Below are positions 25,079 to 41,929 of a stretch of 64,000 nt of DNA, piece by piece. Below the pieces are notes generated by a model that was given only the letters and a program-made list of their open reading frames with translations, did not search any database and was not told where the DNA came from. The position numbers and the translations under genes were made by a program. The stretch covers positions 310,372,001 through 310,436,000 of the forward strand of contig OZ024743.1 in assembly GCA_964016885.1 (NCBI GenBank), written 5' to 3'. The DNA is from Eledone cirrhosa (lineage: Eukaryota). The first letter of the stretch is position 1. The number at the start of each line of letters is the position of its first letter.

Positions 25079-25616
25079 AAGTTAAAACAATGAAATAAAA
25101 AAATCAAGTCATTAGAGATATACTTCACTGCTCTACGATCGTTTCTAGATGATGATAATACATTGTAGCTATACTCCGTTATTGATCCATGTAAGTTTAG
25201 TTACAAAATATCAGATAAAGAGAATATTTACTTATATGCATATCACCAGCTGTTTTCAAAGGCCAAGTGATATGCATGTAAGTAAATATTCATTTCTTTT
25301 GAAAACAGCTGGTGATATGCATGTAAGTAAACATTCTCTTTATCTGATATTTTGTAACTAACCTTACATAGATCAATAACGGAGTATAGCTACAATGTAT
25401 TATCATCATCTAGAAACGATCGTAAAGCAGTGAAGTATATCTCTAATGACTTGATTTTTTTATTTTATTGTTTTAACTTATATCATGACTCTGTTTTCTT
25501 TTTAATGTTTTATTGTTTTCCGAGATTTATCTTAACCTACAACATTTTCAACATATGGATTACATTGAGTGCTTCATGCAGAATAGACCCCACAACTTAC
25601 AGTGGATACCTCTGTG
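25079..25616 (+). mobile_element. Fold-back cassette, copy 3, with unique tail (putative PLE pLTR derivative)
   Basis: Inverted repeat 25079-25479, then a tail with attacattgagtgct (25559-25573) and tggatacc, ending at (TA)n. Confidence 0.6.
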
Positions 25617-25707
25617 TATATATATATATATATATATATACATATATATCATAATCTACATAACTAAGCACATTTCTCTTCTCCTGATTAGCTTACTTGC
25701 TTTTTAT

Positions 25708-25875
25708 TCTCTCTCTCTCTCTCTCTCTCTCGCTCTCACTCTCTCTCGCTCGCTCGCTCGCTCTCTCTCTCTCTCTCTCTCTCTCTCTCCTCTCTCTCTC
25801 TCTCTCTCTCTCTCTCTCTCTCTCTCTCTACACACACACACATATATATATATATATATATATATATATATATAA
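25708..25875. repeat. (CT)n/(CA)n/(TA)n microsatellite
   Basis: Direct reading. Confidence 0.95.
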
Positions 25876-27013
25876 CAATTATATATATATATATACTCCT
25901 ACGCATATGTATCTTCATCCTATAAACTTTAGAGTAATATCCCTCCTCGACTACACCTTGAAATTAGGCGTCGCTATATTTTACCATCTCATCAAATAAT
26001 CTTAATACACGTATATTTTCAATATAGTCTCCTTACCAATGTTACGTTCAATATTTTTATTTTGATTCATTATTATTCTTATTTTATTTAATCTGCTTAC
26101 GACGGCAATTGCTTATAAAAAAAAAAAAAATTTAATCCATTAAAATGTTCATTTCAAGGTTAAAAACAAAGATAAAAGAAGTTTTCACGATTAATCATCG
26201 TAATTAACCCATGTTTGAAGTTGATAAATTTAAATCATGCAATAAAGTTAAAACAAGGTTTTAAAAATGAGATTTCACTAAAGAAAAAGTTGCTTTTTTT
26301 AGTAGATACTGAAAATAATAAATAAATTTATTGATATATATTTGTATGTATTGATTAAACCTGAATTTGATATATAGCTCTGCTAACATTTAGTAGAGCT
26401 GTTTTATTGGACTACCACTTCAAGGCCATTTTTAGCTGTTATAATGCTTTCCTATCTTTCAATGTTGAGAATTATTTGACACTATGTGTATCTAGTCATT
26501 TAAACAAGAACGAAAGTTCTTTTTGTACTTCGATGTACTTTTACCAATATTGGTTATTGATTATTTGCATATTTTCCCCTGATCCATGAAACATGCCTGC
26601 TTAGGAATAGAATTATTTATTACTACCCAATTGTAAGTGTATTCACTTACAGATTTAATTATTTGCAATTGTTATTTAGAATTCTAAATTTAACATCGAT
26701 AGAAGTACTTTTCCTGGCTATTCTTTTCACTATACATAAATGCACAGTATGATAGCTATTTTGCAATAATACTTTGATATATATTTTTTTCAGGTATCGT
26801 TTAAATTTGTTATTAACCATGGTGGAAATTTGTATTTGTAACTAATTGTATCAAATCATTTCATTTCGCTGTTGCGTTGCTGGGTATTTTTTAAATTGAT
26901 TGTGAAGTTCTTTTGCCTTTGCCTTATTGAGCTCTTTTTTTCCTGCTTCATGTATTTTTTATGCTGATCTTTATGAGTTTCTTCTTTTTAACTTATTTGT
27001 CAAAGCTAAAAAC

Positions 27014-28295
27014 ATGTCAGAAGTCAAAAGCCCTTGAATTTACAGAATAAATCTCAAAAGAATTTGTATTAACTCAAAAGTTTCAGAGCAGTCAGTTGAT
27101 GTCAAATTTGATAAAAGGCATTTTGTTGAGCCGCATAGAAGGAGCAAAAGAAAAAAAAATCAAAACTATCTTAAAAAGACTACTAAAATTGCACCACCAT
27201 CTATCAAATCATTTGTTTTTGCCGAAAACGAAAATCGTTGGGTACAATAATGACCAAAGCGTTTCTTGAGGCCGACATTCCTCTGCCCAAGTTCACTAAT
27301 CGAAGTTTGACAGGTCTCTATCAATTCTATCCATAAACCACTGCCCTTTCAATCTACGTGCCGAAAATATTTGACATTCAAACACGGTTGAAAATGGCAA
27401 GAGCTGCCTGGCCGATCAAATATATGTTTTAATCGTTGATGAGATACATGATGAAAAAAAGGCTAATTTACTTATTGTTTCAGCTAAAAATCCTCAAGAA
27501 AAAAAACCTGCCACTCGAATCAGCTCTAACAGCCACAGTCATCTCTCAGATAATAGATGATTCGTTTAGTAGTATGGTGGTTCCAAGAGAACATTCTCTC
27601 CTGCTATTGTCTATTGCTTCCCGGTATATGGTAGCTGCTGGAGAAATATTGCATGTTATGAATCCTACGGTCTTCTGTATAACCTGTTTCTACCACAAAC
27701 TGAAAAATTGTGCTATAAGAGTAAAGGATTTCTAGCCTACATTCAATTGTATAATGGCCAAACACCGTCAAGAATAATTAAAAACAATCAGATAACCCCC
27801 TCAGCCAATTGTGCCCAGGTGGGGTAGCTGGTTAGTTGCCTGCAATTACTATGCCAAGAAAATTATAGAAGTTACAGAAGTTGTACAGAACTTTGAGGAG
27901 AAAGGCACTTTGGTGGAGAGACCGAAAGATGTGGTGCAAAATCCTGAGATCAGGACTAACCTCACCCAAATTTCTTGAAACTATTTGCAGTTGAAACGTA
28001 AATTTTGAACGCCTCGAACATCTACGATCCTTACAAAAATCTTCGAAGAATTAGAATTCAACGAAGACCAATGTTGATTTACTTTGATTTTAGATTCAAT
28101 AAACACCAAATCAATTCGATTATTCAAGTAATGAACCCCAAAGTTTTACCAGCGGAATAATCGGATCTGAGATAATGTCTAGCGACATCAGTTGCTGTAG
28201 GAAACAGTTTTTCTATGCTAAAAAAATCCTTGCAAAAGATAGAAATTTTGGGCGTACAAATATATATATATATATCACATTGTACTATAATAAAT
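27014..28295 (+). pseudogene. Decayed hAT-like DNA transposase (CGGBP1/DUF659-like)
   Basis: Fragments DKRHFVEPHRRSK (BED-like), KAFLEADIPLPK, LIVDE, LLLSIASRYMVAAG..CITCFYHKLKNCAIRVK, PIVPRWGSWL..CNYYA, TSVAVGNSFSML..DRNF, with many stops and frameshifts. TIRs were not located. Confidence 0.8.
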
Positions 28296-28355
28296 TTCCA
28301 CAATAGTTATTTTTGAAATTGTTATGATAATATATAAAAATCAAAACTGGTTTTT

Positions 28356-39814: not shown

Positions 39815-40145
39815 GGATGGACTGAATCGTTAGAGAATATTTAGTTCACCTCTTGTGTTCTGGGTTCTAATCATACCCAGGTCAACTTTAACTTTCATCT
39901 ATTCAGGTGTCGATAAAATTATGTACCATAAATTTACTAATACATATTACCACATAGTATTTTAGGGCAGTGAATTGGCAGAATAATTTGAACGTCGGTG
40001 AAAATGCATCACAGTGTATAGTTGCAGCTCTTTGCGTTCCGAGTTCAAATCTCGTTAAGACCAATTTTGATTTTCATCCTCTCCAGTATCCATAAAACAT
40101 AGTAGCCGTCAAGTACTGGGTTCGATTTAATCGACTTTCAGCTAC
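39815..40145 (+). mobile_element. Two degenerate SINE copies
   Basis: B-box and gtcgataaaa central-block remnants at ~39860-39930 and ~39965-40140. Confidence 0.6.
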
Positions 40146-40510
40146 CTCAAATATAAATAATTATTTTCTCTTATCTGAGTCGTACCAATTAGGTACAATG
40201 TAGCTGCGCTTTTAATCAATTTCCTCAACCAAATTTGGATTACTTTTGTTTGGGTCAGTTTATTTGGAACTTACTAAAAAAGGATATAGTTTATATAACT
40301 TCAATATCTTGTTCCTTAAATAGAGAAGACGCAACATTTTTTCAATAGTCTCTGCTTTCAAGCAGACATACATACTGTGAAAAAATGTCAAAAGTGTTCA
40401 ATTTTAGAGAAAGAAAAGTGATATAGGAGGTGCTAGCGATTCGTTGATAGATGTTGCATGATTGGAAGTAAATGTGATTTAATTCCAACATTTTTCACAA
40501 ATGTTTTTAG

Positions 40511-40858
40511 TACCAACATCAACACTAACAATGAGGATGGTGATTTCTCCATCAGTTTCTACGATGGACATTCAGGTTTTCGATCAACTGAATTTCCAAC
40601 TAATGAATTAACTTTAGAAGGGTGGAGTATTTCGTAGGTATGTGTGCCGTTGATGTAATTCTCAAGCCGAATCAGCGTGGGAAAATTTGTCACAAAATAG
40701 GACTTTTGTATAACAATTACAATCCATCCAATGGGCTTCCATGTAATTTTTCTTTTGACCCATGCTATAATAAAGACACATGCCCACGGCTTCCATGTAG
40801 TTTTTCTTTTGATCCATGCTATAGTAAAGACACTTGCCACCCAGTCGGATCAGTCTAA
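40511..40858 (+). pseudogene. Candidate terminal exon of a Cys-rich extracellular protein (one frameshift)
   Basis: tttttag acceptor, then TNINTNNEDGDFSISFYDGHSGFRSTEFPTNELTLEG / EYFVGMCAVDV...CHKIG..., with an in-frame 54-bp duplication encoding LPC.FSFDPCY.KDTC x2. Confidence 0.4.
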
Positions 40859-41467
40859 AGACATAATGTTTGAGAAACGAACTTCTTAATCCCTTCAGTC
40901 ATGCTGTGTTCGCTCAACAGCAGTACAACCTTGACCAACACCACAACTGCTAGTAACTATAATATGATATGCAAGCAACAACAACAACAACATCAATAAC
41001 TTAAAAACCAAAGCAAATACCACCACTACTACCCTTAACAACAACAAATCATTTAAAGACGTTAAACATCGAATTTCATAATATAACACGTTGGTCTTAA
41101 CAAAATACTGAGATCAATAATTCAGAAATCTGATAGTGTATGACGTCGGGAGAAAACATTGTTCTTTTCTATTATCGTCAAAATAACAGTTTTTCAACGT
41201 ATACATTTATTGGTCCATATAACAGTTGAGACTATTTTGAAAAATTGATTTAGTGCCATTTGTCTTTACTATAGAAGATTATAGATGACACTGTTGACAA
41301 TGTAAATTATTCTCAGTATGGAATACAACCAGTCATTAAGTATTTTTTTTATTGAATTTTGTCATACATACATATGTGCACACACACACACACACACACA
41401 CACACACACATATATATATATATATATATATATATATATATATATATATATATATTTATATATATAT

Positions 41468-41929
41468 ACGATAAATTAACGGAGCCATAGACTCTCGCTA
41501 TTCCCTGACATTAATGTGCTCAAAGGAGAAGGAATCCCTAGCCCTTTATAATACAATATGTAGAAAAGACAACACACTAGAGAGAGAGAGAGAGATAGTG
41601 CGTTATCAGTCAAACAGGGAAAAACCACCAGTGTATGGAATCTATAGCCCATGGAATGCAAAGTAGACCCACAATAATTAAAAGTATAAATCACAGTGCA
41701 AATACGTACCTTGATAACCATCTAACACACACGTACAAATCCGAAAGGATCTGTTTCACCAACTAATTTGTTGACAGAAATGATTAGCCTATGGTTCCTC
41801 AGACAACACTAAAAGAATATTTGCCTTCTATGGGCTATAGATTCCATACACTGGTGGTTTTTCCCTGTTTGACTGATAACGCACTATCTCTCTCTCTGGT
41901 GTGTTGTCTTTTCTACATATTGTATTATA
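41468..41929. mobile_element. Fold-back cassette (arms 41547-41662 / 41820-41929) + tail, between (TA)n tracts
   Basis: Near-perfect inverted arms. Minus-strand ttgagcac at 41516-41523. Confidence 0.65.

Follow-up and report, generated by a model that had tools for sequence, protein, structure and literature searches.

Penelope-like elements (PLEs) of the Hydra clade are described in section 11 of PMC8557442 as carrying the motifs RWK and DKT, a CxCx5C linker and an endonuclease with CxxC and CxH motifs and no CCHH motif. In the Poseidon element PAc of Anolis (Frangieh et al. 2024, PMC11167929) the tail is flanked by two internal starts of reverse transcription, and cleavage and extension take place on both strands of the target. 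A binding motif near these starts is inferred there and is not identified. The passages of PMC8557442 and PMC11167929 considered here state as open how PLEs choose their internal starts and what causes the inverted layout with a tail on one side.

The window analyzed here is a stretch of 64,000 nucleotides of Eledone cirrhosa (GenBank assembly GCA_964016885.1, contig OZ024743.1, positions 310,372,001 to 310,436,000 of the forward strand). It contains six cassettes, A to F, between positions 25079 and 41929. Each is flanked by microsatellites and consists of arms inverted at 84–99% identity and a tail on one side only (6/6 cassettes). An earlier interpretation from the letters alone, called the sequence-only reading below, had described the six as lacking overall similarity, and BLAST detects none in any of the 15 pairs. 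Judged by their sequence, the cassettes are truncated, inverted insertions of PLEs in (TA)n, and four of the six families are linked to Hydra-clade elements. A short word shared by the tails turns out to be one strand of a bulged stem, which parent elements usually carry twice. The positions of both ends of the inserted copies are tied to these two stems, and each stem probably positions one of two reverse-transcription starts a few bases upstream (probability roughly 0.6).

The bulged stem and the ends of inserted copies

The six words are all present where the sequence-only reading had placed them. They form the 3' strand of a stem with the order RCTC-helix-loop-helix-TY/TA-GAGY-N-C. The upstream RCTC pairs with GAGY and encloses a short inner helix, the loop comprises 3 to ~70 nt and the 3' side has a bulge of 2 nt (1 nt in D). 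The tails had been regarded as unpaired, but each holds a predicted stem. This first stem (stem 1) is located at 25488–25572 in A (plus strand; long loop, with the 5' strand at 25488 and the 3' strand at 25567), 32174–32235 in B (plus), 32475–32516 in C (minus), 34472–34493 in D (plus; 1-nt bulge variant), 35442–35462 in E (minus) and 41516–41542 in F (minus). Stem 1 of F is of the type with a G-C outer pair, a single letter of its 5' strand being altered in the window copy.

The initial scan for the stem required pairing. Two later sets were built on the anchors alone, with pairing unused. Upstream of the starts of Hydra open reading frames (ORFs; 17 clusters with 24 anchor pairs, four clusters having none), 50 of 72 inner-helix cells are paired compared to a shuffle mean of 33.6 (0/5000 shuffles). 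The outer pair is G-C in 17 cases, A-T in six and A-C in one, which corresponds to a G-C/A-T switch in 23/24. The bulge reads TT in 13 cases, TC in five, TA in four and otherwise in two. For the tails in front of (TA)n, 23 of 28 families could be scored, the other five having no upstream RCTC; here 51 of 69 inner cells are paired compared to 36.2 (again 0/5000). These shuffles ignore relatedness among families. The sets are rule-based, and some stems with long loops or a 1-nt bulge (B, D) are mis-anchored, which lowers the counts rather than raising them. A MAFFT alignment of 37 stems misaligned the variable loops. In the 27 of these 37 stems that were kept, the helices contain six G-U and no A-C combinations (p about 0.03), a modest sign in favor of folding of the sense RNA. 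The core helix is self-complementary on both strands. Rfam gave no match at the gathering score over the stem, and among the 150 of 227 matches listed there are only sub-threshold ones of miRNA models to long palindromes. Overall, the paired hairpin is well supported as a conserved structure.

The word is also enriched at the expected position, a check that the sequence-only reading had proposed. In 80 evenly spaced 10-kb stretches of the genome (an unselected 800 kb), YGAGTRC lies 40–59 nt before a microsatellite in 32 of 179 occurrences, versus 2–6 of 145–209 for five control words. With an upstream RCTC required, 66/263 lie 40–95 nt before (TA)n, and the controls give 3/132, 8/203, 1/164, 24/381 and 12/328. 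Genome-wide, the motif followed by (TA)6 has 34,622 forward matches, and its reversal has 1,438; since one family located outside the window (family G) makes up most of the matches listed, they do not count as independent. The distance to the microsatellite is less regular than had been claimed. It was put at a near-fixed ~40–50 nt; five of the motifs are found 48–56 nt before the microsatellite and that of B 98 nt before it, and the medians of the stem-bearing families are family-specific, ranging from 42 to 86 nt. A fixed ruler of ~50 nt measured from the visible motif was therefore rejected. The near-constancy arises because stem 1 is spaced from a second stem that insertion leaves out. The 'ttgagtgct' at 25565 is present but private to the window copy: family A (L001–L020) reads GAGTTC in 20 of 22 counted matches, with GAGTGC in the window copy only. 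The shared 'attac' is largely an inner-helix strand, and 'tgg(a/t)tacc' is not general.

Copies that read through the end of the tail contain the second stem (stem 2) behind it in families A, B, C and F and in two families from outside the window, G and H. It is clear in four of the six window families. In family A there is one common continuation, with stem 2 in all eight matches. Stem 2 of B (one copy) and of F was found without RCTC being demanded. The stems usually occur as a pair between the hammerhead and the start codon, and stem 2 precedes the ORF start by 26–58 nt.

For each family the insertions end at TA junctions that form two clusters, and in the families with regular stems either cluster sits a few bases 5' of a stem. 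In A, B, C, F, G and H, tail-less ends are located 6–9 nt before stem 1 and tailed ends 3–7 nt before stem 2. Measured from the modal TA junction to the first base of stem 1 and stem 2, respectively (counts at the mode in parentheses), the offsets are −9 (6) and −6 (13) in A, with a tail of 138 nt; −7 (6) and −5 (15) in B, 146 nt; −6 (14) and −6 (14) in C, 99 nt; −8 (10) and −7 (24) in F, 84 nt; −8 (33) and −6 (51) in G, 80 nt; and −6 (13; second mode −10, 8) and −3 (14) in H, 90 nt. In D the tail-less ends lie at −8 and −6 (four each), the 29 junctions at the mode of the tailed end precede no regular stem and the tail has 66–68 nt. In E the tail-less end is at −6 (24; second mode −17, 8), the tail has 63 nt and the tailed end can only be measured to the nearest RCTC (26 at the mode). 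The junction offsets are narrow while the tail length varies twofold (63–146 nt), even where the homology is limited to the two bases TA (A). Contigs from sequencing runs (X1 and X4; the kind of run is not known, and they are possibly from the same sample) agree for family G, with loose TA ends at 785 and 865 and stems starting at 791 and 869. Past 865 their depth drops about 100-fold or more. Variants that are common within the stems are located in loops or preserve pairing.

The two sites are used in combination. A total of 42 inverted pairs were scored at loci that were not fetched by the query of their own family (seven families; F and the window left out). Site 1 is joined to site 2 in 41 of them, site 2 occurs twice in one and site 1 twice in none. 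With an expectation of 50%, a hand calculation gives about 1e-11 for 41/42. Furthermore, in D there is endonuclease sequence in the tail-less copy that is missing from the tailed one. The former must therefore have been templated separately and is not a fold-back of the latter.

The stem extends to other hosts. A set of 44 Hydra-type loci was picked by protein and blind to the motif (L282 and L283 represent one family). A hammerhead core follows the endonuclease in 25 of them, and 16 have at least 100 nt beyond the core. The stem is present in 11 of these 16, twice in six, at a shuffle rate of 1%. Six further loci end in (TA)n 40–57 nt past the core; the first anchor of the stem-bearing loci is located 41–74 nt past it. 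In the published Hydra consensi of the PMC8557442 supplement, read by eye, the stem is recognizable in Hydra-2_Amil and Hydra-2_Ajap and twice at the 5' end of Hydra-1_Ajap. The six motif 9-mers occur four times in six Hydra consensi, always within stems; the Naiad and Chlamys files, which are far larger, contain three occurrences, all in interior lines. The count was made by lines, and line breaks can hide words. No Hydra stem was found near the ends of a few controls from the window, namely a Neptune-type remnant (29403–31494), the element at 32827–33512, the palindromes at 34583 and 41996 and a hammerhead dimer (14974–16053). These comparisons of sequence support a stem that is tied to the Hydra clade and not to PLEs in general. 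The proposal of a conserved, PLE-derived cis-signal in divergent and non-autonomous families is supported accordingly, but with a structure in place of a linear word and with the Hydra clade in place of PLEs at large.

How the two ends may be set

As a start signal, the paired hairpin is moderately supported. Each hairpin would be a putative hold for the protein of the element on the sense RNA of a tandem unit, the template, and would set a UA/AU word 3–9 nt upstream of it against a nicked (TA)n end. The protein would nick both strands of the target. One DNA end could then pair over 2–4 bases with the word just 5' of stem 2 and the other end with the word just 5' of stem 1. Extension of both complementary DNAs (cDNAs) would proceed toward the 5' end and break off early, and the two would then be joined head to head. 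The cDNA begun at stem 2 would copy the stem-1 region; that begun at stem 1 would not. Because only the former copies this region, the tail is expected on one side, with a length equal to the stem spacing. Because each stem lies behind its own start, stem 2 would be missing from ordinary insertions. Keeping both stems would allow non-coding tandem units such as F to be mobilized. A single dimer serving both starts is an assumption taken by analogy from the Poseidon model. The stronger version is a two-site RNA ruler, in which a pair of bulged hairpins, each bound by one reverse transcriptase (RT), would cause both target strands to be primed at the same time and at fixed positions inside the element. 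It is proposed tentatively, at slightly less than even odds. If true, it would explain the tail and inverted layout of PLEs and license retrozyme-like passengers to move, and any RNA upstream of the hairpin pair could be written into (TA)n.

Several observations weigh against stem-positioned starts. The tailed junction of E lies at −11 from the nearest RCTC with no regular stem 2, and its read-through shows a short hairpin that lacks both the bulge and the inner helix. For D, with one read-through copy, there is only a long-loop candidate for stem 2. Some search patterns for stem 2 demanded RCTC after the tail end, leaving as blind tests the register, the partner strand and the ORF behind. The control of the tail set also exceeds its shuffles (84/159 compared to 64.6; 4/5000), probably due to true stems of tandem copies within the control. 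A looser count of G-U and A-C combinations is only 10 to 5, and folding energies show no preference for the sense strand, the stem folding about equally on either. Two duplicates of A in the window are tail-less at both ends and break the one-of-each rule; they are outside the 42-pair count. Loss or mis-assembly of symmetric palindromes is possible and would make 41/42 too high. The regular stem is absent from five of the 16 loci of other hosts. By eye, Hydra-1_Crog has a variant of the stem, it is weak in Hydra-1_Amil, and Hydra-1_Obim has no tail in the published consensi. Finally, some full-length copies begin just 5' of stem 2 (6/28 in H, by eye), which the model does not directly explain.

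Full-length tail-less copies that start near stem 2 behind a short inverted tail are present at L124:7900-8200, L141:700-940 and L325-L354. They are compatible with a transcript start at this place, or with twin priming if the template is tandem or circular.

Starts near stem 2 would be explained if the stem is recognized in DNA. The GIY-YIG domain would bind it in single-stranded cDNA or extruded DNA and nick the upstream TA word, and the ends would be cut sites that resolve an intermediate. The two strands are about equal in how well the stem folds, in PMC8557442 the tail is attributed to resolution by the endonuclease and, according to work cited in PMC11167929, the D. virilis tail is needed for endonuclease recognition of DNA. 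On the other hand, the helices contain G-U without A-C, and the Poseidon tail ends coincide with starts of reverse transcription in vitro (PMC11167929). This explanation is unlikely, though the least unlikely of those considered besides stem-positioned starts on RNA. The same 5' ends, and the location of stem 2 only 26–58 nt before the ORF, would also suit a signal for expression, either an internal promoter or a translation or stability signal of the hammerhead-cleaved RNA, with insertions ending at accessible TA words or at transcript starts. Such a signal would hardly be kept in duplicate by the non-coding family F. It would also leave unexplained the 41/42 mixed pairs and the narrowness of both offsets, which persists in A with two bases of homology and despite the twofold variation of the tail. 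Its probability is low, clearly below that of DNA recognition.

Priming from an antisense transcript has been put forward for PLE inversions in general (PMC3846280). Here it would imply self-priming at the palindrome center, with protein-bound stems as stops similar to the template boundary of telomerase. The self-complementary core helix and the best fold matches of the modeled protein, which are telomerase RTs, are in line with this. But this would require one cDNA to run through stem 1 and halt at stem 2, with the other halting already at stem 1; the G-U bias points to the sense strand and Poseidon uses sense RNA in vitro (PMC11167929). The antisense route thus seems improbable, if anything a little more so than the expression signal. 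Least probable, and already disfavored, is the reading in which the word was inherited as a remnant, or assists hammerhead folding, and has no role in setting the ends. Hammerhead stem III of several published Hydra elements does contain the same four-base pairing as the outer helix (PMC8557442, File S2). But the inner helix covaries among otherwise dissimilar families, and the stem occurs outside the context of the hammerhead core, at widely varying distances from it. Stem-positioned starts on the sense RNA remain the preferred explanation.

Parent elements, cassettes and the rest of the window

The families of A to F are all multi-copy in the genome (searches scoring 40 candidates each). A, C, D and E continue into ORFs with RWR/RWK, DKT (SDKT/ADKT) and YRDD. 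Read-through into a Hydra ORF is seen for family A in L381–L387, into an ORF with RWK for C in L389–L400 and into the start of a Hydra ORF for E in L402 and L414; endonuclease links of A are in L008, L015 and L017. The endonuclease parts of A, D and G comprise the CxCx5C linker, a GIY-YIG domain without CCHH and C-terminal CxxC/CxH motifs. By these ORF features, as listed in PMC8557442, the linked elements are Hydra-clade PLEs. Linking each cassette to an autonomous PLE, another proposed check, succeeds for A, C, D and E; for B no ORF link was found, and the unit of F is non-coding. B and F are likely passengers of Hydra-clade PLEs. Tracing the elements from their endonuclease genes up to the first microsatellite was mostly unsuccessful, since internal repeats are present in the 3' untranslated regions (UTRs).

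Family G provides intact proteins. Open Hydra ORFs of 717 aa are present in tandem units of 3.53–3.54 kb in L375 (G000:C1:91476001-91486000) and L376 (C1:437199501-437209500), where a single ORF encodes the RT together with a C-terminal endonuclease of the GIY-YIG type. At least 2,049 of the 8,000 candidates scored are homologues, and the structure model of the protein (pLDDT 93) has telomerase RTs as top fold matches. The genome contains tens of thousands of 3' fragments of the family, whose hammerhead core is non-canonical. Neither of two Hydra-type proteins matches Pfam, a sequence search of the PDB with a Hydra-type ORF gave no match and no relatives were found among viral contigs. The preference for insertion into (TA)n is present in these families. 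Assignment to Neptune or Naiad PLEs was rejected, since the linked ORFs are Hydra-type and without the CX2-5CxxC finger and CCHH motif. A miniature inverted-repeat or other DNA transposon was rejected as well, given that the inner junction varies among copies, the tail is at one end and the arms reach RT-endonuclease ORFs.

Cassette A (25079–25616, plus strand; Hydra-clade family) consists of arms at 25079–25479, with an inverted tail-less arm and the tailed copy, and a tail at 25480–25616. Its duplicates that are tail-less at both ends are located at 17875–18273 and 23022–23421, inside a tandem duplication of ~5.1 kb. In B (31784–32326, plus) the arms span 31784–32167 and the tail 32168–32326. 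The tailed copy of C (32425–32806; Hydra-clade family) is on the minus strand and the tail-less copy on the plus strand. D (33607–34536, plus) combines a long tail-less copy (33608–34277, minus) with a short tailed one (34275–34536, plus). E (35400–35590, minus; Hydra-clade family) has a tail at 35400–35479 and palindromic arms at 35480–35590 (99%). F (41455–41929, minus) is a fragment of a non-coding tandem hammerhead unit that keeps both stems. The family of F is a non-coding tandem repeat with units of 517–552 nt in 10 of 11 tandem cases and one unit shortened to 275 nt. A tandem unit of 2630 nt with a hammerhead and both stems, found at L378:300-5900, has no match to the PLE proteins used and would be a large non-coding passenger.

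The GIY-YIG remnant that had been noticed in one cassette is confirmed at 33850–34277 (minus), in the tail-less copy of D only. It is Hydra-type and frameshifted, and tblastn aligns it to L069 at 78–97%. Hammerheads, expected in three cassettes, are more widespread; those in B, C, E, F and the family of D are predicted from the core pattern. Cores are located at 32079–32120 in B (plus; mirror copy 31846–31887, minus), 32707–32743 in C (plus; partial mirror 32577–32604, minus), 35506–35528 (minus) and 35542–35564 (plus) in the palindromic arms of E, and 41754–41802 inside F. The core of D (34400–34421, plus) is degenerate and is canonical in the family copy L058. The core-pattern search found no canonical core in A.

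Other repeats surround the cassettes. The region 13830–25079 is an 11-kb (TA)n array including the ~5.1-kb duplication that carries the tail-less duplicates of the arms of A. The duplication also contains a dimeric hammerhead element (14974–16053 and 20101–21179) with cores 472 nt apart and without the Hydra stem; Rfam HH9 scores it at 31–33 bits, below the gathering score of 52. The Neptune-type remnant (29403–31494, minus) has a CX4CxxC finger, a CCHH-type GIY-YIG domain and a hammerhead at 29445, and it ends ~20 nt past the core. The element at 32827–33512 (minus) contains a minimal hammerhead core (32954); its TA end is fixed, with no bulged stem 3' of it. Two fold-backs, 34583–35355 (733 bp, 99%) and 41996–42396 (380 bp, 75%), have related tails of ~40 nt and no hammerhead core, motif or stem. 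No link to a PLE protein or to published Naiads was found for them; possibly they represent another PLE clade.

A long interspersed nuclear element (LINE) with a 497-aa ORF1 and a 1048-aa endonuclease-RT ORF2 is located at 53119–58236 (plus), and broken LINE copies in (TTA)n are found at 45282–52833 and 58838–63018 (minus). Their class names, including the RTE/R4-like type presumed for the broken copies, are assumed from the translations. A decayed transposase-like stretch spans 26985–28250. A many-copy repeat resembling short interspersed nuclear elements (SINEs) is present at 10234–11995, 28355–28959, 37644–37992 and 43033–43946.

Comparison with described systems

The elements share RWK/RWR, DKT, the CxCx5C linker, the endonuclease CxxC and CxH motifs and the lack of CCHH with the Hydra clade of Craig et al. 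2021 (PMC8557442). Also shared are a hammerhead in the pseudo-long terminal repeat, (TA)n targets, an inverted 5'-truncated partner and a one-sided tail. Tails of the eight families measure 63–146 nt compared to 30–40 nt in PMC8557442, a usual size there and not a strict criterion, and the units of family G measure 3.5 kb compared to under 3 kb. No structure of the tail is described for the clade in the sections of PMC8557442 considered.

In Poseidon the starts are located inside the ORF, in an AC-rich stem-loop and without target homology (PMC11167929). Here, by contrast, each junction falls on a short TA/AT word of the 5' UTR and is closely followed on its 3' side by one of the repeated, conserved hairpins. 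The Poseidon template segment given with Fig. S1 of PMC11167929 has a five-letter word repeated 34 nt apart, about the tail length. This could be an analogue of the two sites. F resembles the non-LTR retrozymes (bioRxiv 10.64898/2026.07.22.740005) in being a non-coding tandem unit with a hammerhead in PLE-like insertions. The portion of that preprint considered names no recognition signal; the two stems kept by F are a candidate. The stem pair may thus tie non-coding hammerhead repeats to an autonomous partner, and the stem can serve as a diagnostic for tens of thousands of TA-flanked fragments in this genome. A small covarying element at a fixed offset to both ends defines exact mutations to test, and the protein is available from the intact 717-aa ORFs that this genome carries in tandem arrays.

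Stringent LINEs and SINEs have a 3' RNA stem-loop near the start that is read by the RT of the element. The start there is single and 3'-terminal, and the hairpin, located 5' of it, is copied. The elements described here have two hairpins, each on the 3' side of its own proposed internal start. Twin priming of L1 uses two primers on one RNA and leads to an inversion. In the mechanism proposed here, in contrast, the second primer would act at a fixed site and the two cDNAs would overlap. No twin-hairpin element was found described in the literature searched by title and start of abstract, a scope outside which subscription papers, figures and Repbase notes fall. The elements belong to a known clade, and the paired hairpin that tracks both ends is the new feature.

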